64,000 bases of DNA from an uncultured Candidatus Saccharibacteria bacterium (GCA_964654205.1 CAZZHR010000001.1:65953-129952); one strand, 5' to 3'; counted from the stretch's first letter, positions 9,142-45,415 are shown. Notes: generated from the letters alone by a model not told the origin. Numbers and translations are program-made.

Positions 9142-9230
9142 AGGGATGTGTATGTTGTATCTAGTATGCCGTACGTAGTATGAAAATTGCGTACAAAATA
9201 CCAGATACCACATACTATATACTACGCGGG

Positions 9231-10886
9231 ATGGGACTTTCTGAGCTCGTACAGACACTCCTCAAAAAGCGCGGTATCGAAGACACCGCCGCATTCCTCT
9301 CTCCCGACTATGAGCTCCACACGCATTCGCACGCACTTTTTGCAGACATGGAAGCGGCAGTTTCGCGCGTGCTCGCAGCAGTAGAGAAAGGTGAACGCAT
9401 CGCTATCTACGCGGATTTTGATTGCGACGGTATTCCTGGCGCCGCACTTCTCTCTGACGTGTTTCAGAAAATCGGGTACGGAAACTACGAAATATACATA
9501 CCGCATCGCGACAAAGAGGGCTACGGCCTGCATACAGATGCTATCGATGCGCTGCGAGAGAGGGGTGTGACGCTCATGATAACGGTCGATGTGGGTACGA
9601 CAGCGGTAGACGCTGTTGCCTACGCGTCGGAGCGCGGTATCGACACGATTGTGACGGACCACCACGAGCTTGGCGCGGAGCTTCCGCGCGCTGTTGCAGT
9701 TCTCAATCCGAAGCGAGAGCCCTACCCGTACCCACATTTGTGCGGTGCCGGGGTCGCGTTCAAGTTTGCGCAGGCACTCATCGAAGCGGGCAAGAAGCGT
9801 GGCGTAGCGGGATTCGCGCCTGTTGCTCCAGGGTGGGAAAAGTGGCTCCTCGATCTCGTAGCAATCGCCACGGTGGCGGATATGGTCCCACTCATCGGCG
9901 AGAATCGCGTGCTTGCGCACTGGGGACTCACCGTGCTCCGTAAGTCGCCGCGGCCGGGCATTACAGCGCTTCTCTCGCAGCTCCGCATGCGGAAAGCGGA
10001 ACTCACCGAAGAGGATATTGGATTTTCCATCGCGCCGCGCATCAATGCCGCGTCGCGTATGGACAATCCTGACCTTGCGCTGAAACTCCTCACGGCCAAA
10101 GACCCGAAAGAAGCAGAAGAGATTGCGGCGAGCCTCGAGAAACTCAATGCGTCGCGCAAGGGTGTTGTCGCGGGAATCGTGCGCGAAGCAAAAAAGCGAA
10201 CGCGCGCGCGGTTCCAGCCGGGCGAAGTTGTCGTGCTCGGCGACCCTGAGTGGAAGCCGGCACTCCTTGGTCTCGCTGCAAATTCAATCATGGGTGATCG
10301 CGGTGGTGTCGTGTGCCTGTGGGGACGCGATGCGCTCGGTCGCATCAAGGGCTCGTGCCGTTCCGACGGGGAAATGTCCGTCGTCGAACTTCTCACCGGC
10401 GCGGGGGATGCCTTTACGGAATCGGGCGGGCACGCTGCGTCGGGAGGATTCACTGTTGCGGAGGGGGCAGTGCACACGCTCCCGGAGAGGCTTGCGAGTG
10501 TCGCGCAGAATCTCGTGCGCAAGACGGCCGCGGAGGTGGCGCGTGAGGATGCATCCATAGCGCTCCGCGAGGTTTCGTTCGCGCTTCTGCGTGACATCTC
10601 ACAGCTCGCGCCGTTTGGTATTGGCAACCCGAAGCCCCTGTTTCGTATACGCCGCGTTCGCGTCTGCGAAGTGCGCCGCTTCGGCAAAGAAAAGAACCAC
10701 GTCGAGGTGACGCTCGCGTGTCGGGAGACCTCTGCGACTGCGCGCGGATTTGATTTTTTCCGAGCCCCTGAGGATTTTACTTATGCACCCGTACCGCAGG
10801 CTGAGGCATCGGTGCTTGCGACGGTGGAGCGCGATACGTACCGCGGCGGCCTCGCGCTCAGATTGGTGGACATACTGCCCGCCTGA
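9231..10886 (+). CDS. recJ: Single-stranded-DNA-specific exonuclease RecJ
   Basis: DHH motifs (IYADFDCDGI, TVDVG, VTDHHE) and a DHHA1-like C-terminal region. Confidence 0.85.
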   Translation: MGLSELVQTLLKKRGIEDTAAFLSPDYELHTHSHALFADMEAAVSRVLAAVEKGERIAIYADFDCDGIPGAALLSDVFQKIGYGNYEIYIPHRDKEGYGLHTDAIDALRERGVTLMITVDVGTTAVDAVAYASERGIDTIVTDHHELGAELPRAVAVLNPKREPYPYPHLCGAGVAFKFAQALIEAGKKRGVAGFAPVAPGWEKWLLDLVAIATVADMVPLIGENRVLAHWGLTVLRKSPRPGITALLSQLRMRKAELTEEDIGFSIAPRINAASRMDNPDLALKLLTAKDPKEAEEIAASLEKLNASRKGVVAGIVREAKKRTRARFQPGEVVVLGDPEWKPALLGLAANSIMGDRGGVVCLWGRDALGRIKGSCRSDGEMSVVELLTGAGDAFTESGGHAASGGFTVAEGAVHTLPERLASVAQNLVRKTAAEVAREDASIALREVSFALLRDISQLAPFGIGNPKPLFRIRRVRVCEVRRFGKEKNHVEVTLACRETSATARGFDFFRAPEDFTYAPVPQAEASVLATVERDTYRGGLALRLVDILPA

Positions 10887-10898
10887 TATTCTCTACCC

Positions 10899-11609
10899 AT
10901 GTCCCGCATCATTATTTTCTGCGACGGTGCATCGAAGGGCAATCCGGGAAGCGGCGGATGGGGTGCTCTCGTCGCGACAGAGACGCACGTCGAAGAGCTC
11001 GGCGGAGCCGAGGCGCAGACGACCAACAATCGCATGGAACTGAAGGCCGCTTTCGAGGCACTCGCAAAAGCAAAAGGCTTTGGCGCGGAGACCGTCGATG
11101 TATACGCAGACTCGCAATACGTCATCGGCGGAGCGACGGCGTGGGGCAAAGGATGGCGGCGCAATGGATGGATTACTTCTACGAAGCAGCCAGTCCTCAA
11201 TCGTGACCTGTGGGAGCCACTTCTCGATTTGCTGGATTCTATGGACGCAAAAATTAGTTGGCACAACGTCGGCGGACACGTCGGCATCGGGGGCAACGAA
11301 CGAGTCGACGAAATTGCGTCCGGATTTGCGACGAATGGTGCACCACCGCTCTACTCAGGCGCGCGCGGCGAATACCCCATCGACCTTTCCAATATCGACG
11401 TCGACGAATCACTGCAAAAAAAGAAGTCCGAATCCAAAAGTCGCTCAAAGGCCAAGGCGTATTCGTACGTAAGCGAAGTCGATGGCGTCGTGGAGGTGCA
11501 TAAGACGTGGGGTGAGTGCGAAGCGCGCGTTCGCGGCAAAAAGGCTCGCTTCAAGAAAGCTCTCTCGGAACAGGAGGAAAAGATGATTGTAGAATCATTC
11601 TCGCGCTAA
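10899..11609 (+). CDS. rnhA: Ribonuclease HI with C-terminal hybrid-binding (caulimovirus viroplasmin-like) domain
   Basis: RNase H catalytic motifs (IFCDGASKGNPG, NNRMEL, YADSQYVI, GHVGIGGNERVDEIA). The C-terminal 'YSYVSEVDGVVEVHKTWGECEARVRGKKARFKKA' matches the HBD pattern of RNase H1, which is normally N-terminal. Confidence 0.85.
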   Translation: MSRIIIFCDGASKGNPGSGGWGALVATETHVEELGGAEAQTTNNRMELKAAFEALAKAKGFGAETVDVYADSQYVIGGATAWGKGWRRNGWITSTKQPVLNRDLWEPLLDLLDSMDAKISWHNVGGHVGIGGNERVDEIASGFATNGAPPLYSGARGEYPIDLSNIDVDESLQKKKSESKSRSKAKAYSYVSEVDGVVEVHKTWGECEARVRGKKARFKKALSEQEEKMIVESFSR

Positions 11610-11619
11610 GATTTGTTGA

Positions 11620-13143
11620 ATGTCCGGCAGAATAGTCTGGGCGGTGTGCGTAGGATTCCTTGCGGGAATTCTGCTCCGCTCGTTCTTCTTCCTCTCGTGG
11701 CCGTTCGCGGCTCTGCTCATTTTTCTCGGCGCAGTGATGCTGATATATCGCTTGACCGATATATCACGAAGCGGTATGTACGTGGCCTTGGCTGTTGCGT
11801 GTATCGCATGCAGTGCAGGAATACTTCGTATGGATTCCGCGGGGCTTGTGCACGACCCGAATCTGTACGAACGATTGAACGAAGATGTCGTCCTGGTTGG
11901 AAAAGTAGTTGCGGAGCCTGACGTCCGAGAGAAAAACGTCAGGTTGCGCGTGCGGGCAAGCGATATGATATATCATAACGCTACGACCTCTGTTGATGCC
12001 GGCGTGCTCGTCGTCGCGCCGCTTCACTCCGAAGTCTCATACGGTGACACTATCCGCGCGGAGGGGAGACTGCGACTTCCCGAGGCGTTCGATACCGGTT
12101 CCGGACGGGTGTTCGATTACCCGATGTTCCTCGCAAAAGACGGAGTGCTCTACGAGCTCGCGTTTGCGGAAATCGAAGTGCTCGAAACAGGCGGCGGCGA
12201 TGTTGTAAAGAAGGCTGCGCTTGGAATCAAGCAGCTGTATCTCACCGGATTGCAGCGCGCACTCCCGGAACCTGCGGCGGGACTCGCGGGCGGCATCACG
12301 GTGGGGGACAAACGCTCCATCGGAGAAGAGCTTTCGCAGGCTTTCATCAATGTCTCGCTCATCCACATCGTCGTCCTCTCCGGTTACAACATGACCGTCG
12401 TCATCAATGCGGCGGCGCAGGGGATGAAGTACGTCCCCGGCGCGACGCGCTCGGTGCAATTCGCGGTGAGCGGCGTCATCGTGCTTTTCTTCGTGCTTAT
12501 GACGGGAGGTGCGGCGAGTGCGACACGCGCGGGTGCGATGGCGCTCATCGCCACGTATGCGCGACTTTCGGGGCGTTCCTTTCTCGCGCTGCGCATCCTC
12601 GCGGTTGTCGCGGCGGCGATGGCACTCTGGAACCCATTTATCGTCGCGTTTGACCCCGGCTTCCAACTATCGATTCTCGCGACCGCAGGACTCATCCTCT
12701 TTACGCCGCTCATTGCGCCGTACCTCCCGTTCGTCACTGAGCGGTGGGGACTGCGTGAGATAGCCGCATCGACACTCGCGACGCAAATGGCGGTGCTCCC
12801 ACTCCTCTTGTACCAGAATGGACTCCTCAGTATTTCCGCGATACCGGCGAATCTCCTTACGCTCATCTTCGTTCCGGCTGCAATGCTCTTTTCATTCATC
12901 GCATCTCTCGCGGGACTTATTCTCGGCTCATTCGGAACGATTGTCGCGCTTCCCGCGCTCGCGCTCCTCACGTACATCATAAAAGTAGCGGAGATTCTTT
13001 CTACAATTCCCTATGCATCTGTCACCGTCCCCGCATTCGGCGTCTGGCTCATGGTGGTGATGTACATCTTGCTCGCCGCCGGCTACGTATGGCTCAAAAA
13101 CAAAGCGCCCCCGACGGAGTCCGGGGACGCTGGTCGCCGATAA
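11620..13143 (+). CDS. comEC: ComEC/Rec2 DNA-uptake channel, competence domain only (no MBL domain)
   Basis: Polytopic membrane protein with the competence motif region 'LSQAFINVSLIHIVVLSGYNMTVV'. It ends without the usual C-terminal metallo-beta-lactamase domain. Confidence 0.8.
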   Translation: MSGRIVWAVCVGFLAGILLRSFFFLSWPFAALLIFLGAVMLIYRLTDISRSGMYVALAVACIACSAGILRMDSAGLVHDPNLYERLNEDVVLVGKVVAEPDVREKNVRLRVRASDMIYHNATTSVDAGVLVVAPLHSEVSYGDTIRAEGRLRLPEAFDTGSGRVFDYPMFLAKDGVLYELAFAEIEVLETGGGDVVKKAALGIKQLYLTGLQRALPEPAAGLAGGITVGDKRSIGEELSQAFINVSLIHIVVLSGYNMTVVINAAAQGMKYVPGATRSVQFAVSGVIVLFFVLMTGGAASATRAGAMALIATYARLSGRSFLALRILAVVAAAMALWNPFIVAFDPGFQLSILATAGLILFTPLIAPYLPFVTERWGLREIAASTLATQMAVLPLLLYQNGLLSISAIPANLLTLIFVPAAMLFSFIASLAGLILGSFGTIVALPALALLTYIIKVAEILSTIPYASVTVPAFGVWLMVVMYILLAAGYVWLKNKAPPTESGDAGRR

Positions 13144-13199
13144 CGCGGCGACAAATGTTCTTGCTGCAACCGTCGGCCTTACGCGCCGACGCGCTGCCG

Positions 13200-13937
13200 T
13201 TAGTTGCTGCCGTAGGCAGCCTGCTCGGTCGCGGCCGCGCGCTTCGCCTCGGCGCTGTCCGGCGCCGGATTCTGCCCGCTAGCGAGCGACGGGTGCTGCG
13301 CCTGCCAGTCCGCGCCCTGCTCCTGCGTCGGCGTGTCGGCGAGGAAACCGCCCTTCGGCAGTTCCTCGGCGTTGCCGGTCGCCGGCGCATCGGCGCCGTC
13401 GAGCGTCTCGACGAAGGCCAGCACGGTGGTGAGCTCGGGCTCGGTGACCTGGAGCAGCTTCGCGAGGTCGCTGATCTTGGTGGTGAGCGGCTGGCTCTGG
13501 CCCTGCGTGACCACATCCGGCAGCACGGTCGTGATGCCGAAGAACACGGTCCGGTACAGGCTGGCGTGGGACGGATTGGCCTTCGCCGCCGTCTCCAGGT
13601 CGGTCAGCACGCGGATCGCGCCGGCGCCCGTGTGCATGTCGCCCTCAAACGAGCCGAAGAACAGCGCCTGGGCGCCGAGCCGGCGCAGATAGGTCTGGAC
13701 GTCGGCGTGCTGCTCGATATCGAACTTCGCGATGGTCGGCGCGACGATGGCGATGGCCGGGATGTGGTTGGCCTGCACGGTGATCTGCGCGAGCGACTGA
13801 ATCAGCGCAAGCGCCGTACCCATGTCGGTCGACGTGGCGACGAGCCGCGTGATGGCCGTCTCCGGCTGGATGCCGGCCAGCAGACGGCTGGTCATGTCGC
13901 TCATGGTCGGCTTGCCGTTGGTCTTGGGTTTCGTCAC
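13200..13937 (-). CDS. Hypothetical protein on a compositionally distinct high-GC island
   Basis: 245-aa ORF with balanced amino-acid composition in a ~70% GC segment. The opposite-strand ORF is Arg-rich, i.e. an antisense artefact. A TTGACA-16-TTACTG promoter-like element lies upstream on the minus strand. Confidence 0.5.
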   Translation of the reverse strand: MTKPKTNGKPTMSDMTSRLLAGIQPETAITRLVATSTDMGTALALIQSLAQITVQANHIPAIAIVAPTIAKFDIEQHADVQTYLRRLGAQALFFGSFEGDMHTGAGAIRVLTDLETAAKANPSHASLYRTVFFGITTVLPDVVTQGQSQPLTTKISDLAKLLQVTEPELTTVLAFVETLDGADAPATGNAEELPKGGFLADTPTQEQGADWQAQHPSLASGQNPAPDSAEAKRAAATEQAAYGSN

Positions 13938-14049
13938 TGGATCGTTCCTTCTGTGTTGGGTCAGGCCGCTCAGCGGCCTGATCTCTCAGGCCACAGCGGC
14001 TGCTGTGACTGGGCGGGACAGTAACACTACTGATTTGTCGTGTCAAATG

Positions 14050-14080
14050 CAGACGGCGCCCCAAGGAGGGGCGCCGTCTG
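14050..14080 (-). terminator. 13-bp perfect stem-loop (CAGACGGCGCCCC/GGGGCGCCGTCTG) downstream of the minus-strand membrane protein gene
   Basis: Perfect inverted repeat read directly. It lies 20 bp beyond the stop of the 14101..14538(-) ORF. Confidence 0.6.
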
Positions 14081-14100
14081 AAGAATCAAGAGTGACGAAC

Positions 14101-14538
14101 CTACATTACCGGCGCAGGAGCAGAGGAGCCGCGGCCTTTCCACCAGCCGACGAGAGCGGCCGGAACCACCCAGTAGCAGAGGAGGACGACTGTCGACGCG
14201 CTCAAGAGGAACGGACCGAAATTCGGGATGACCGATACCATCTGTGAGAGCGAACCGGTCTGCGTGAGTACGCCTGCGATACCAGAGATGAAGGCGACAA
14301 CGAGCGAGAGCGCAAAGCCCAATGCCCCGAATATCACGCCTGTCTTGAGGTCGCGCACGCCATACCACATCGCGAGGAGGGCTACGACGATAGCGGAGAG
14401 AACGACAAACGCGATGTACTGCGGCGTGAGCATGCCAGGCGTAGCGCTGGGCGGGATGAGCGCGATTATTGCCGCGACTACCGTGTTGGTGAGGTAATTG
14501 CCGAGAAACGTGACAAGGATTGCCTTTTGATAATTCAT
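14101..14538 (-). CDS. Small integral membrane protein (4 predicted TM helices)
   Basis: 145-aa hydrophobic ORF with no recognisable motif. Confidence 0.55.
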   Translation of the reverse strand: MNYQKAILVTFLGNYLTNTVVAAIIALIPPSATPGMLTPQYIAFVVLSAIVVALLAMWYGVRDLKTGVIFGALGFALSLVVAFISGIAGVLTQTGSLSQMVSVIPNFGPFLLSASTVVLLCYWVVPAALVGWWKGRGSSAPAPVM

Positions 14539-14726
14539 AGAGCGCTGTGAGTGCTAATACCTACAGGATATCATGCGCTCGCCGCAGTAAAGCGCTTTTC
14601 CACTGCTTCGCTCCTAGCGTAGCGAAGAAGGTCGACAGTGTCCTGCGAAGCTGTACGCCGAGCAGGGCTATGAGCTGTTTTCCCCACAAGTCAGTACGAG
14701 CTTCGCAGTGCAAGCACACATAAGAG

Positions 14727-15335
14727 CTAAGTTGCTTGCTCGAACCTCTTTTCGATAACGCCCCAGTTGAGATTCTTGAAGAATGCATCTATATATTGTG
14801 TCTTCCCCGCAGGCAGCGCCCCATAATCGAGGACATATGAATGCTCCCACACGTCGAGTGCGAGGATGATGGGGAGTGTGGCAAAGTGCCCCTGGTGCTG
14901 CTCACCGACGAAGCCGCCGAGAAACTGTCCCGCCCGCCCGCCCGCTGGCGGATCCCAGTAGAGCATTGCCCACCCGGGTCCGCGCATCTTGGCGATGGCT
15001 TTCATGTACTCCACCAGGTACTCGGGCTTGTGATAATCCCTCACTATCGCGTCGTAGAACGCGCCACTTGTAGGCATGGGAGATGTGCCGCCTTCGAACT
15101 GCGGGAAGTAGAGCTCGTGCAGTCGCATTCCGTCGAATTCGAAAGAGCGACGACGAAGGAGCTCGGAGAGTGCGTGCACATGCTTCTCGCTGTCTTTCGC
15201 GTATTCGGCGAGGAGCGAGGATATCGCATTGAAATTCTTGACGTACCCCTCATACAGACCGATGTGTTCGTCAATCGATTTTTTTGATATCCCATCGAGT
15301 TCAGGTATCGAGAATTTCTTCGGTTGGTATTCCAT
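14727..15335 (-). CDS. Fe/Mn superoxide dismutase
   Basis: Metal-ligand context 'HH..H' and 'DVWEHSY' (family motif DVWEHAYY). Length 202 aa. Confidence 0.9.
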   Translation of the reverse strand: MEYQPKKFSIPELDGISKKSIDEHIGLYEGYVKNFNAISSLLAEYAKDSEKHVHALSELLRRRSFEFDGMRLHELYFPQFEGGTSPMPTSGAFYDAIVRDYHKPEYLVEYMKAIAKMRGPGWAMLYWDPPAGGRAGQFLGGFVGEQHQGHFATLPIILALDVWEHSYVLDYGALPAGKTQYIDAFFKNLNWGVIEKRFEQAT

Positions 15336-15378
15336 TGCATCAATATAACATCGCCGTTCGTGAAGCTAGAATGTACGG

Positions 15379-16233
15379 ATGCGCTCTTCGTCGAAGTTCG
15401 TCGCTTTCCTCCTCGCCCTCCTTGTCCTCGTGCTCGGATGCATTGCATACGCCATCGCGCACGAAGACCGAGGCGGACTCCTCACCGTATCGTTCCTCGA
15501 CGTAGGGCAAGGCGATGCGATTTTTATCGACGCACCGTCGGGGCGACAGGTGCTCATCGACGGCGGACCGAACGCGCAGGTGCTTCGCGCATTGTCCCGC
15601 GAAATGCCGTGGTACGACAGGCATATCGACGTCGTGCTCGCGACGCATCCGGATGCCGACCACATCGGCGGACTCGTGGACGTACTCGAACGCTATAAGG
15701 TCGACACGATTGTGCGTTCGAGCGCGGAAGGCGATACCGCGCTCGCCGAGACGTTTGATAGTCTCGCCACTTCTGGCAGATATGCGACTTTTTTCGCAGA
15801 GCGCGGACATATCCTCGACCTCGGGGAGGGCGCGCAGCTGGAAATACTCTTTCCGGACAGGCCGGTTCCTGGACTCGAAGCGAACGTCGGGTGTGTCGTC
15901 GCGCGACTGACGTACGGCGACACCGCATTCATGCTCCCGTGCGATACGCCTGATGAAATAGAGCTCTACCTTGCCCGACTAGGTCGCGACCGTTTGAAAG
16001 CAGATGTGCTCAAAGCTGCGCACCATGGCTCAAAAACGTCGTCGGCCGCGGCGTTCGTCGGTGCCGTGTCTCCGGCGTACGCGGTATTCTCGCGCGGCTG
16101 CGAAAACAGCTACGGACACCCACATCCGGACGTCGTTGCCACATTTGAGCGGTTCGAAATCTCGACACTCGACACGTGCGAAGAGGGGACGATTACGTTT
16201 GTGAGCGATGGACAAACGGTGTCGCTTCGGTAG
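15379..16233 (+). CDS. ComEC-type metallo-beta-lactamase-fold domain protein (stand-alone, membrane-anchored)
   Basis: N-terminal TM segment, 'LTVSFLDVGQGDAIFIDAP' and 'ATHPDADHIGG' motifs of the ComEC C-terminal MBL domain, plus 'KAAHHGSKTS'. Confidence 0.8.
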   Translation: MRSSSKFVAFLLALLVLVLGCIAYAIAHEDRGGLLTVSFLDVGQGDAIFIDAPSGRQVLIDGGPNAQVLRALSREMPWYDRHIDVVLATHPDADHIGGLVDVLERYKVDTIVRSSAEGDTALAETFDSLATSGRYATFFAERGHILDLGEGAQLEILFPDRPVPGLEANVGCVVARLTYGDTAFMLPCDTPDEIELYLARLGRDRLKADVLKAAHHGSKTSSAAAFVGAVSPAYAVFSRGCENSYGHPHPDVVATFERFEISTLDTCEEGTITFVSDGQTVSLR

Positions 16234-16278: not shown

Positions 16279-16425
16279 ATGAAAAAGTTTTTCATCGCAC
16301 TCGCCAAATTCATCGGATATGGCGGAGCACAGGGACTTGTCGACCCATCGCGTGTCGAGGGTCGTGACCGCCCGAGGGTGAGGACAATCGTCATCGAGGG
16401 CAAGCGGAGAAGCTGGACGTTCTAA
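16279..16425 (+). CDS. Candidate small protein (48 aa)
   Basis: GGAGG 5 nt upstream of the ATG. It ends ~20 bp before a GC hairpin with a T-tract (16446..16473). It is not in the ORF track because it is shorter than 60 aa. Confidence 0.3.
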   Translation: MKKFFIALAKFIGYGGAQGLVDPSRVEGRDRPRVRTIVIEGKRRSWTF

Positions 16426-16511: not shown

Positions 16512-16757
16512 TTAGGCAAGAATCCCCGCTTTCTTGAGCGTCTGGAAGGCGCCGCGCTTTTTCATCGTCTTGAGGCCCTTGGCCGAGACATGTACGGTGA
16601 TTTTCTTGCCGAGCTCGGGGAGAAAAATGGTCTTTTTCTGGAGGTTCACCTGGCGGCGGCGCGCACCCGTCGGGTTGAATTTGGTAGCACGAACACGGTT
16701 GGAGTACCCGCCCCCAACCTGGCTCTTCTTTCCTGTGATGTCGCAGACCTTGGCCAT
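16512..16757 (-). CDS. rpmB: 50S ribosomal protein L28
   Basis: MAKVCDITGKK..GYSNRVRATK..RRQVNLQ pattern. Start taken at the internal Met. Confidence 0.88.
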   Translation of the reverse strand: MAKVCDITGKKSQVGGGYSNRVRATKFNPTGARRRQVNLQKKTIFLPELGKKITVHVSAKGLKTMKKRGAFQTLKKAGILA

Positions 16758-16894
16758 ACGTCGGCGAACTGTACCGCAGGGGGTGTATAAAGTCAAAAAA
16801 CAGGAGGCAAAAGTGTATACCCCATGAGATACCCCACTCTAGATTCTGGCGATATATTCGAATCTCACTATCTCACGGGGTATACTGATGCACT

Positions 16895-17521: not shown

Positions 17522-17593
17522 GGCTCATCCTTGCGCCCGCAGGGCATTAATAGTAGTATCTCGGCATTCCCCTCGGGGGATTTTTGATTGACA

Positions 17594-18010
17594 ATGGCTA
17601 CGATAAACCAGCTCGCACGCAAAGGACGCAACCCGCGCGTGTACAAATCCAAGACCGGCGCGCTCGCGCGCGGTTTCAACACGCTCAAGAACCGCCCCTC
17701 TTTCTACCCGGCGCCCTTCAAGCGCGGTGTGTGCACTCGCGTCACGACCAAGACGCCTAGGAAGCCCAACTCCGCCATCCGCAAAATCGCCCGTGTCCGT
17801 CTTTCCAATGGGATGGAAATCACCGCCTATATCCCGGGCGAGGGGCACAACCTCCAGGAGCACTCGGTCGTCCTCGTGCGCGGTGGTCGCGTGAAAGACA
17901 TCGGCATCCGCTACACTATCGTGCGCGGTAAGCTCGACGCGACAGGAGTGGAGAAGCGCCGCCGCGGTCGCTCACGATACGGGGCCAAGAAGCCGAAGGC
18001 CGCCAAGTAA
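17594..18010 (+). CDS. rpsL: 30S ribosomal protein S12
   Basis: [12 protein letters not shown]-terminus and 'PNSAIRK..RVRL' core. Confidence 0.95.
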
Positions 18011-20140: not shown

Positions 20141-20178
20141 AGAGAACAGGCCTTAACGTAATTTTGAATACAGCACGT

Positions 20179-22320
20179 ATGAGTAGAGATTACCCACTCG
20201 AGAAAGTCCGCAACTTCGGCATCGTCGCGCACGTCGACGCAGGCAAGACGACCACGTCGGAGCGCATCCTCTACTACACCGGAGAGAGCCACAAAATAGG
20301 CGAGGTGCACGAGGGCAACACGGTCACCGACTGGATGGAGCAGGAGCGCGAGCGCGGCATCACCATCACGGCAGCTGCTATTACGTGTTTCTGGAACCCC
20401 TCGTACATGGGCGCTGACACCTCGTACAAACATCGCTTCAACATCATCGACACCCCGGGACACATCGACTTCACTTCTGAAGTGAAGAGAAGCATGCGCG
20501 TGCTCGACGGTGCGGTCGTCGTATTCGACGGTGTCGCGGGCGTGGAGCCGCAGTCGGAGACCAACTGGCGTTATGCTGAGGAGGCAGAGGTGCCCCGCAT
20601 CTGCTACATCAACAAGCTCGACCGCACCGGCGCATCGTTTGAAAAGTCGTACGCTTCGATTCTCGACAGGCTTTCCACGAAAGCCGTTCGTCTCCAGATT
20701 CCTATCGGTCTCGAAGATCAGTTTGAGGCGGTCATCGATGTTCTCGAAATGAAGGCGTATCGCTTCGAGGGTGAGATGGGAAAGAACGTCGTGCCGTTCG
20801 AGATTCCGGATCAGTACAAAGCCGATGCGGAGAAGTATCACAACGAAATTGTTGAGCGCATCGTCGAGACCGACGACGCACTTATGGCCGAGTTCCTCGA
20901 CGGTAAGAAGCCCTCTCTCGAGGTGCTCAAAAAAGCACTTCGCCAGGCCGTCGTCACCAACAAAATCTTTCCCGTCCTCACGGGCTCGTCGCTCAAGAAC
21001 AAGGGTGTGCAGCGCGTACTCGATGCGGTGGTGGATTACCTCCCGTCTCCCCTCGACTTGCCGCAGGCAAGAGGCGTGAACCCCGACACCGGCGCAGAAG
21101 AGACCCGCCCAGCCGACGACTCAGCACCGTTTAGCGCACTCGTCTTCAAGCTCCAGGTAGACCCGTTCGTCGGTGCGCTCACGTTCTTCCGCGTATACTC
21201 CGGCTCTATCAACACCGGCGACACCGTCTACAACTCCGCCAACAATAAAAAAGAGCGCATCGGCCGCATGGTGCGCCTCCAGGCCGACAAGCGCGAGGAA
21301 ATAAAGAGCGTGCACGCGGGTGAAATCGCCGCCGTGGTCGGCATGAAAGAGGTGAAAATCGGCCACACGCTCTGCGTCGCAGACCACCCTATCGTGCTCG
21401 AGAGCATTGTCTTTCCGGAGCCGGTGGTCTCGATGCGCGTGGAGCCGAAGACGAAGGCGGACCAAGAGAAGATGGGCATCGCCCTCTCCAAGCTCTCCGA
21501 CGAAGACCCGACGTTCCGCGTCCACTCCGACCCTGAGACCATGGAGACGATTATCTCGGGCATGGGTGAGCTGCACCTGGACATCATCGTCGACCGCATG
21601 AAGCGCGAATTCAGCGTCGAAGCGACGACAGGCAAGCCGCAGGTCGCGTACCGCGAGACTATCCAGGGTCAGAGCGACGTGGAGTACAAGCACATCAAGC
21701 AGACAGGCGGCCGCGGCCAGTACGGACACGTGAAAATCAAGGTCAAGCCGCTCGAGCCGGTCGTCGAGGGTGAGAAGGTCAAGAACAATGTCGACCGCGA
21801 AGAGCACTTCGAGTTTATCAACAACATCAAGGGTGGCGTCATTCCGCAGGAGTACATCCCGGCCGTCAAGAAAGGCCTCAAAGAGGGTATGGAGCGGGGC
21901 GTTCTCGCTGGTTTCCCGCTGGTAGACGTGTCGGTCGACCTCTACGACGGCAGCTACCACGATGTCGACTCGTCGGAAATCGCCTTCAAGCTCGCGGCAC
22001 TCAACGCGTTCCAAGAAGCGATACAGAAGGCGAAGCCGGTCATTCTCGAGCCGATTATGAAGCTCGAAGTCGTCATGCCCGAGAAATTCATGGGCGACGT
22101 GACTGGTATGATCAACTCGAAGCGCGGCACAATCGAAGCGATGGGCGAGCGAGGCCAGGCCCGCGTCGTCACTGCGAAGGTCCCACTCTCCGAGATGTTC
22201 GGCTTCACCACGCAGCTCCGCTCACTCACGGAAGGCCGCGGCGTCCCGAATCTCGAGTTCTCGCACTACGCAGTAGTTCCGCGCAATGTGCAGGACGAAA
22301 TAGTGACCTCAAGAAAGTAA
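20179..22320 (+). CDS. fusA: Elongation factor G
   Basis: '[16 protein letters not shown]' G1 motif, 'DTPGHIDF' and 'NKLDR', with full-length EF-G domain pattern. Confidence 0.97.
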
Positions 22321-25118: not shown

Positions 25119-26318
<1,200 letters not shown>

Positions 26319-44566: not shown

Positions 44567-45415
44567 ATGGCAATCAAAAAATACAAACCAACGTCGAAGT
44601 CGCAGAGGCAGCACACCTCCATCGACTACCGCAAGATGCTCTCCGGCCACAAGCCGCTGAAGGCACTTCTCAAGGGCAAAAAGCGCATGGGTGGCCGCAA
44701 CAGCTTCGGCCGCATCACGACGCGTCACCAGGGTGGCGGTCACAAGAAGCGCATGCGCGATGTCGACTTCACCTTCGACAAGAAGAACATCCCGGCAAAG
44801 ATTGCATCTATTGAGTACGACCCGTTCCGCTCGGCCTTTATCGGCCTCGCAGTCTACGCCGACGGCGCGAAGCGCTACGTCGTTCTCCCGCGCAATGTGC
44901 AGGTGGGGGACACGTTCGTCGTGTCTGAAAATGCTCCTATCAAGACGGCGAATCGCCTCATCCTCGGCAACATGCCCGTCGGTACATTTGTCTACAACAT
45001 CGAGCTCAAGCCGGGCGCAGGCGGCAAAATCGCGCGCTCCGCCGGCAACTATGCGGAAGTCGTGGCGCAGGACGCGGGATACACACATCTCAAAATGCCG
45101 TCTACCGAAGTGCGCCGCATTATATCGACCGCGTGGGCGACCGTAGGCGAGGCGAGCAACGAAGAACACCGCCTCGAGAACTGGGGCAAGGCTGGCCGCA
45201 CGCGCTGGAAGGGTATCCGCCCGACCGTGCGCGGTACCGCGATGAATCCGGTCGACCACCCGCACGGCGGAGGTGAAGGCCGTCAGGGTCGCGGCCACAG
45301 GCGCCAGCGCACCATGTGGGGCAAGCCGTCCGGCAAGGGCCAGAAGACCCGCCGCCCGAAGAAGTATTCAAACGTGTTTATCGTGACTCGGAGACGCGTA
45401 GGCAAACGAAAGTAG
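44567..45415 (+). CDS. rplB: 50S ribosomal protein L2
   Basis: 'GRNS.GRIT.RH.GGGHKKR', 'NPVDHPHGGGEG' motifs. Confidence 0.95.
   Translation: MAIKKYKPTSKSQRQHTSIDYRKMLSGHKPLKALLKGKKRMGGRNSFGRITTRHQGGGHKKRMRDVDFTFDKKNIPAKIASIEYDPFRSAFIGLAVYADGAKRYVVLPRNVQVGDTFVVSENAPIKTANRLILGNMPVGTFVYNIELKPGAGGKIARSAGNYAEVVAQDAGYTHLKMPSTEVRRIISTAWATVGEASNEEHRLENWGKAGRTRWKGIRPTVRGTAMNPVDHPHGGGEGRQGRGHRRQRTMWGKPSGKGQKTRRPKKYSNVFIVTRRRVGKRK

Follow-up and report, generated by a model that had tools for sequence, protein, structure and literature searches.

Within the 64,000-nucleotide window analysed here (CAZZHR010000001.1:65953-129952 of assembly GCA_964654205.1; all positions are coordinates of this whole window), the competence protein ComEC is encoded by two separate genes, a channel half (ComEC-N) and a stand-alone metallo-beta-lactamase (MBL) half (ComEC-C), with three opposite-strand genes lying between them: hyp245, mem145 and a superoxide dismutase (SOD)-like gene. 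The split is an old arrangement common to the lineage and ordinary for the group to which the window belongs, and the GC-rich island that lies between the halves is unrelated to it. We consider it highly probable that the locus is the normal two-protein ComEC of a Kaiserbacteria-type genome (Paceibacteria, Patescibacteria/candidate phyla radiation, CPR), with the nuclease supplied in trans. An earlier note on this DNA had described the two-gene arrangement, the separate membrane anchor of the MBL half and the island with its minus-strand gene, and in these respects it was borne out, all of its open reading frames (ORFs) at 11620-16233 being present where it had placed them; its suggestion that a 2.2-kb insertion had split a fused comEC gene was not.

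Channel and nuclease halves of ComEC

The ComEC-N protein matches DUF4131 (PF13567, E 9.5e-19, residues 27-187) and the polytopic membrane domain Competence (PF03772, E 2.9e-44, residues 227-493), spans positions 82-408 of the 663 in the TIGR00361 model and aligns over residues 9-483 (E 3e-24) with residues 9-482 of 30bt_A, a full-length ComEC of solved structure. At its C-terminus a hydrophobic helix leads into a short, positively charged tail (KNK...GRR), and with its stop codon at 13141-13143 the protein, unlike canonical ComEC, carries no MBL domain on the same polypeptide. With DUF4131 and Competence as its only domains, in a Patescibacteria genome, it has the make-up of the CPR-type unfused ComEC. 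It is predicted to be required for DNA import or natural transformation, a function for which related experimental evidence exists only for a Saccharibacteria comEC (PMC10633639).

The separate MBL gene encodes a protein that matches PF00753 (E 8e-12), spans TIGR00361 positions 441-663 (E 1.9e-32) and carries the motifs FLDVGQGDA, THPDADH and HHGS. Its membrane anchor is a single N-terminal hydrophobic segment (residues 1-30), with R2 and K6 (MRSSSK) preceding the helix. Residues 14-279 align with residues 514-789 of 30bt_A (E 5e-31), including the membrane helix before the nuclease domain, and residues 35-280 align with the ComEC C-terminal-domain structure 9ic4_A (E 7e-32); HPDADH, the bridging aspartate D189, HHGS and GHPH align with both structures. 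GQGD, DH, D189, HHGS and GHP are kept across 24 stand-alone members of the MBL family, down to 36% identity, and the protein has the metal-binding motif set of a ComEC C-terminal-domain-type MBL nuclease, suggesting metal-dependent DNase activity. Models of MBL proteins from defence systems (LmuA, DRT-associated, Avs1a) also gave partial matches, but these covered only the first 70 or so N-terminal residues and are no rival to the full-length match to ComEC. The possibility that the MBL protein is a lipoprotein was considered and rejected, as the N-terminal cysteine (in LGC) is not conserved in the family alignment.

On 30bt_A the regions aligned to the two proteins (9-482 and 514-789) do not overlap and leave almost no gap between them. 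In comparisons among the window and two related loci (L001 and L002), at dS of about 1-1.9, dN/dS was 0.09-0.13 (ComEC-N) and 0.09-0.11 (MBL gene); with both at about 0.1, the two halves are under equal purifying selection.

Conservation of the split in relatives

A scan of species-representative genomes gave 80 loci with ComEC-N identities from 83% to 37%, in which gene order was checked by tblastn with the window proteins; synteny was counted over the 60 loci (species-level genomes) with at least 4 kb of downstream sequence. The earlier note had asked whether ComEC is fused or split in relatives, and it is unfused in the best 120 homologues of each half: those of ComEC-N are all 430-540 aa, with DUF4131 and Competence only and no MBL domain, and those of the MBL protein are all stand-alone, at about 284 aa. 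The named sources of the ComEC-N homologues and loci are Kaiserbacteria, Paceibacterota or Patescibacteria, and JGI or NCBI annotation already gives several of the MBL homologues the name “competence protein ComEC” or “ComEC/Rec2 family”. When 1.84 billion cluster representatives (50% identity) were searched with the MBL protein, about 138 of the best 150 were stand-alone, and fused proteins of 788-848 aa were first seen at 42-46% identity. That CPR bacteria lack the ComEC-MBL fusion has already been published (Meheust 2019, PMC6744442).

Gene order is conserved along with the split. The succession RecJ, RNase H, ComEC-N (plus strand), mem145 (minus), SOD (minus), MBL (plus), ribosomal protein L28 (minus), M50 peptidase and S12 is shared by relatives with ComEC-N identities from 83% to 38% and was recovered in nearly all of the 80 loci, and the closest three (83%, 82% and 64%) have this same order with M50, S12 and S7 downstream. 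A same-strand MBL gene was found no more than 4 kb downstream of ComEC-N in 57 of the 60 loci (median distance 1,652 bp), with a minus-strand SOD gene between the halves in 55 of these 57 and a recognisable mem145 in 40. As SOD and mem145 recur between the halves in relatives, approximately 1.5 kb of the 2.2 kb interval represents ancient conserved synteny.

These results bear directly on the idea that a recent 2.2-kb opposite-strand insertion, bringing the GC island with it, split a fused comEC in this genome. The idea draws on the three opposite-strand genes between the halves, one of them a compositional outlier, but it is refuted by the synteny survey: the same split, with the same SOD and mem145, occurs down to 38% ComEC-N identity and a fused homologue is absent among the 120 nearest. 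The outlier, moreover, consists of a 738-bp coding sequence alone, sitting in a pre-existing variable slot with conserved flanks (see below), and neither an integrase, a transposase, a tRNA nor flanking direct repeats were found for the island, leaving a recent insertion with next to no probability. The other option in the earlier note, a naturally bipartite ComEC that was later invaded, comes nearer to what we find, except that the event lies deep in the lineage and the GC island had no part in it. The note had also expected that an ancestral two-gene ComEC would appear in relatives as the same split without intervening genes; the split is indeed there, but the lack of intervening genes is not general, SOD and mem145 usually being present.

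Some loci depart from the common order. In L084 (9956-12305, ComEC-N identity 38%) both ComEC genes are on one strand and directly adjoin or overlap in different reading frames, without a SOD gene in between; this could represent the split in its simplest form or a secondary loss of SOD. In L088 (5329-8311, MBL 43% identical) the SOD/MBL pair is inverted as a unit, and the MBL gene converges on ComEC-N and slightly overlaps its 3' end, while L089 has SOD only.

In the mechanism that we propose, ComEC-N would supply the DNA-binding OB (oligonucleotide/oligosaccharide-binding) fold and the membrane channel, and the first helix of the MBL protein would be the counterpart of the last membrane helix in fused ComEC. 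Judged by the positive-inside rule, the break in the chain would fall in a cytoplasmic loop and the MBL domain would face outward, a topology matching that of fused ComEC, in which the C-terminal domain is extracellular (PMC8579336). The MBL nuclease, expressed from a gene with its own putative promoter region head-to-head with the SOD-like gene, would dock on the channel at the outer face of the membrane and there degrade the DNA strand that is not transported, the role of the fused C-terminal domain in Bacillus and Moorella. Physical association of ComEC-N with the MBL protein is, from the sequences, most likely, and co-function of the two halves, which the earlier note had raised, is plausible given their complementary tiling, motifs, constraint and linkage, the docking step itself being a prediction.

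Several observations weigh against such joint action. Neither half alone passes the TIGR00361 equivalog cut-off of 190 bits (70.6 for ComEC-N and 112.3 for the MBL half). The MBL gene was never seen in an operon with ComEC-N, as opposite-strand genes intervene, and it lies on the opposite strand in L088; because the two are never co-transcribed, co-regulation of the halves is no more than a possibility. A nearby MBL gene is missing in 3 of the 60 loci, and, as a caveat, a recent study found higher MBL nuclease activity when one chain carries the OB fold as well (PMC12455585). Those fused ComEC proteins that come nearest give no indication of whether fission or fusion took place, as the gene neighbourhoods of the two that we examined are unrelated to that of the window.

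The stand-alone MBL protein might instead act without the ComEC channel, for instance as a surface nuclease scavenging nucleotides from DNA outside the cell or as a defence nuclease, its linkage to ComEC-N being simply inherited gene order. Its own promoter region, its pairing with SOD and not with ComEC-N, the inversion of that pair in L088 and the partial matches to defence-system models would all suit this explanation, and CPR bacteria are thought to scavenge DNA (PMC6744442). Such independent action is compatible with most of the data, but we think it improbable: the defence matches are confined to the N-terminus where those to ComEC span the whole MBL protein including the membrane helix, the linkage to ComEC-N persists in 57 of 60 genomes despite local rearrangements, and sequence constraint is equal in both halves. 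The two explanations also overlap, in that one nuclease at the outer membrane surface could contribute to uptake as well as to scavenging. We favour a two-protein ComEC in which the MBL protein would act with the channel.

The SOD-like gene is divergently paired with the MBL gene, with 43 bp from start codon to start codon in the window (15333-15381) and a median of 84 bp over 69 loci. Only its C-terminal domain passes the Pfam threshold (Table 1), and although the motif DVWEHSY is present, the protein scores 68 bits in NCBIfam against a cut-off of 300 bits and so lies below the equivalog cut-offs. On the MBL side a -10-like box, TAGAAT (15367-15372), ends 6 nt upstream of the ATG and there is no obvious Shine-Dalgarno sequence; with the promoter-like box so close and the Shine-Dalgarno sequence absent, the MBL mRNA may be leaderless. 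Such tight head-to-head pairing could point to regulation of the nuclease together with oxidative-stress defence instead of with the channel.

A GC-rich gene in a variable slot

The kilobase 13001-14000 has a GC content of 67.2%, the highest of the 64 one-kilobase bins of the window (mean about 57%), and the content of a 300-nt sliding window peaks at 71.7%, in line with the island of about 70% GC in the earlier note. The minus-strand gene that makes up this island, hyp245, has GC contents of 0.65, 0.49 and 0.93 at the first, second and third codon positions (GC1, GC2 and GC3); the GC3 of other real genes in the window is at most 0.80, EF-Tu, S12 and EF-G coming next at 0.78-0.80. A longer ORF on the plus strand (13089-14024, 311 aa) was rejected as the shadow of the minus-strand frame, because its GC peak falls at codon position 1 (0.875), mirroring the GC3 of the minus strand.

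Codon choice sets hyp245 apart as well. CTG makes up 12 of its 23 leucine codons compared to 18 of 160 in host genes (P 2e-6) and AGC 8 of its 13 serine codons compared to 7 of 74 (P 5e-6), a usage that stands out because the host bias favours C-ending codons. Its synonymous choices are unlike those of both average and highly expressed host genes, and so in composition and codon usage it differs from its host as a genomic island would. In the host, leucine codons are strongly biased to CTC (0.83), and GC3 peaks in translation genes (S12 0.79, EF-G 0.78, EF-Tu 0.80 and L2 0.78; genes at 17588-18010, 20164-22320, 25119-26318 and 44567-45415).

A search for the product of 13200..13937, as the earlier note had proposed, returned only the protein itself among 5.8 billion proteins. 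It had no match in Pfam, NCBIfam, PHROGs or PADLOC, no tblastn match in phage or plasmid collections and no paralogue in the window, and no att sites or meaningful direct repeats were found flanking the island, the repeats there being as expected by chance. The single-sequence AlphaFold2 model (pLDDT 56.7, pTM 0.55) consists of an all-helical bundle and a disordered tail; generic helical-repeat matches of this model in a Foldseek search of the PDB were rejected (E >0.1, TM <0.3). The gene appears non-essential.

A segment with the highest GC in the window and a product without a homologue anywhere searched might be taken for an assembly chimera or contamination, a worry voiced in the earlier note. 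This can be set aside as a vanishingly small likelihood, as independent Logan assemblies of two sequencing runs, SRR15237804 (12,738 bp) and SRR15237806 (1,044 bp), contain the gene and overlap the window with 100% identity across both junctions, which rules out a chimeric join; both flanks of the segment also continue the conserved synteny, and the promoter, untranslated region (UTR) and ribosome-binding site (RBS) predicted upstream of the hyp245 coding sequence are common to L001 and L002.

The minus-strand sequence upstream of hyp245 contains a perfect 13-bp hairpin (14050-14080) that occurs once in the window where none is expected by chance, a putative promoter (TTGACA at 14041-14046, a 17-nt spacer and TACTGT at 14018-14023), a second hairpin (13961-13981) and an RBS, GAAGGAA, before a GTG start at 13937. 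The 13-bp hairpin and TTGACA-17-TACTGT are common to the window, L001 and L002 (equivalent upstream regions at L001 9969-10106 and L002 9972-10132), and the second hairpin and RBS are common to the window and L002 up to the start codon, where similarity stops. DNA similarity to L001 runs past the ComEC-N stop to the stop of the slot gene (13202) and resumes at 14040, and that to L002 resumes at 13945, right at the start codon. Judging by these flanks, hyp245 did not enter the locus as a foreign transcription unit, and of the intervening genes it alone, a coding sequence of about 0.74 kb, is specific to this genome on sequence comparison.

The same slot varies widely among relatives. The slot genes of L001 and L002 encode 128 and 136 aa, each with a GC3 of 0.91, and neither can be aligned to hyp245; in L004 (64% identity) the slot is empty, and across loci the conserved gene that comes next lies 0 to about 2 kb from ComEC-N. 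The GC3 of the slot ORF exceeds that of ComEC-N in 16 of 20 loci. In five loci the slot, downstream of mem145, holds members of a fast-evolving family of small proteins without a Pfam match (Table 1), that share an IPxxH motif at about residue 50-70, have a low-complexity tail and recognise each other in leave-one-out tests at E 1e-7 to 1e-13. With a seed leaving out L001 and L002, the L001 slot gene (9582-9968, minus strand) gave a weak match to this family (E 0.0013); hyp245 was rejected as a member, its match not being significant (E 2.5).

This turnover could stem from horizontal replacement of coding sequences or from very fast local divergence with GC-biased gene conversion. That hyp245 was acquired from a high-GC donor, replacing the prior occupant of the slot by recombination in the conserved flanks, is a serious possibility to which we give slightly less than even weight. 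Its GC3 and its CTG, AGC and CGG choices unlike those of average and highly expressed host genes would fit such an origin, as would the ending of similarity to L001 and L002 at the boundaries of the coding sequence, in an organism that encodes DNA-uptake machinery. On the other hand, no donor or homologue was found among the 5.8 billion proteins, phages or plasmids, the unrelated slot genes of L001 and L002 are equally extreme in GC3, with slot ORFs above ComEC-N in most loci, and the weak match of the L001 gene is to a resident slot family; fast local divergence with GC-biased gene conversion fits the GC3 pattern at least as well. A slot with a conserved promoter, UTR and RBS, in which coding sequences of GC3 >0.9 are completely exchanged from one close relative to the next, may be maintained by transformation-driven recombination and GC-biased gene conversion, and an orphan gene with a GC3 of 0.93 whose expression context is conserved is a minor, unexplained oddity of gene turnover in reduced genomes.

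The neighbouring mem145 has no family match in Pfam or NCBIfam and is 88-91% identical in L001 and L002. Its dS against these two is low (0.28-0.54) compared to 0.9-2.1 for its neighbours ComEC-N, SOD and MBL, which could reflect recent recombination beside the variable slot or constraint on synonymous sites.

Features of the locus are collected in Table 1. RecJ lies upstream of ComEC-N in nearly all of the 80 related loci. The C-terminal 60 or so residues of the RNase H resemble, below threshold (E 0.012), the hybrid-binding domain of RNase H1 (PF01693), which is usually N-terminal. Between RNase H and ComEC-N the window has a gap of 10 nt and no extra genes, and relatives have one or two extra small hypothetical genes there (L001 7484-7924; L002 6865-7296 and 7446-7910; L004 7532-7900), among them a conserved protein of 143-146 aa starting MCDYSLE; the channel gene thereby has a second variable site beside it. 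The terminator-like hairpin for a minus-strand transcript is located within the 3' end of ComEC-N. Just 3' of the MBL gene is a 48-aa ORF (16279-16425, plus strand) without a family match, a counterpart of which is called as a gene in L001 and in the Logan assembly L086, and beyond L28 lie the M50 peptidase gene and then rpsL and rpsG. Neither tRNA genes nor Rfam families were detected at threshold across the 64 kb, despite its large region of ribosomal-protein and translation-factor genes.

Table 1. Features of the ComEC locus and of the slot family in related loci (window coordinates unless a locus is named)
Feature	Position	Strand	Remarks
RecJ-like single-stranded DNA exonuclease	9180..10886	+	DHH, DHHA1 and RecJ_OB domains; upstream neighbour of the ComEC channel gene
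RNase H with C-terminal extension	10899..11609	+	PF00075 E 3e-38; ends 10 nt before the ComEC-N start
ComEC-N: OB-fold (DUF4131) and transmembrane Competence channel domain	11620..13143	+	507 aa; without MBL domain
Terminator-like hairpin, minus-strand transcript	13104..13131	-	11-pair stem, then a T-run (TTGTTTTT); consensus scan only
hyp245, 245-aa ORFan forming the high-GC island	13200..13937	-	Slot downstream of the mem145 gene
Putative expression region of slot gene	13938..14100	-	Conserved in three-genome alignment
mem145, 145-aa membrane protein, unknown function	14101..14538	-	About four hydrophobic segments
Fe/Mn superoxide-dismutase-like gene	14727..15335	-	PF02777 Sod_Fe_C E 1.3e-14
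Promoter-like element for MBL gene (ATAACA, 16 nt, TAGAAT)	15345..15372	+	Consensus scan and sequence
ComEC-C: putative membrane-anchored ComEC-type MBL nuclease half	15379..16233	+	284 aa
Ribosomal protein L28, downstream block boundary	16512..16796	-	tblastn synteny; called genes in L001 and L086
IPxxH family members	L019 5292-5651; L033 11520-11993; L044 1062-1583; L051 11548-12069; L056 11505-11894	-	

Relation to known ComEC systems

The novelty of the locus is thin because public annotation already labels both halves ComEC, and the main outcome is a correction, in that the apparent breakage of a gene by an invading island turns out to be the standard layout of a large group of ultra-small bacteria. 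Taken jointly, a working split transporter-nuclease and/or a cassette-like hypervariable slot beside the channel gene is a doubtful reading. The modest addition is the retention of the nuclease half as a separate, anchored and strongly conserved gene within a few kb of the channel gene. Our literature search on split or separately encoded ComEC nucleases returned nothing relevant, and none of the papers found described a linked, anchored gene for the nuclease half in CPR bacteria.

Compared to canonical ComEC/Rec2 (Bacillus subtilis and Moorella; 30bt, 9ic4; TIGR00361), the two proteins have the same three modules in the same order with the same HxDxDH/HHGS/GHP motifs, and the membrane helix before the MBL domain is likewise kept. 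They differ in that the chain is broken between the last two membrane helices (approximately residues 483-513 of 30bt_A) and in that the halves are genes 2.2 kb apart with independent promoter regions and opposite-strand genes between them. The unfused ComEC of CPR bacteria (fam000603, Meheust et al. 2019) comes from the same lineage and has the same DUF4131 and Competence architecture; relative to what the available part of that paper reports (PMC6744442), the persisting separate, anchored and syntenic MBL half is the addition of the present analysis.

Almost half of ComEC proteins are without a C-terminal domain (CTD), and strand degradation in these is an open question (Silale et al. 2021, PMC8579336). 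The linked MBL gene is a candidate for degrading the non-transported strand with CTD-less ComEC in CPR bacteria and, if the MBL protein does dock in trans, the missing nuclease of such proteins would be supplied for this radiation. The channel protein of Helicobacter pylori likewise ends just before the position of the nuclease domain, but its genome is without a close relative of the ComEC MBL domain (PMC5031224), and in the window such a relative lies 2.2 kb downstream. The CPR “MBL-like” genes, which are also stand-alone, MBL-fold and widespread in CPR bacteria, have been catalogued as possible beta-lactamases or multifunctional enzymes in a study that omits competence and ComEC (PMC10459063); by contrast, full-length alignment and synteny place the protein described here in the ComEC C-terminal-domain type, suggesting that many of the CPR genes discussed as possible beta-lactamases may be ComEC nuclease halves.

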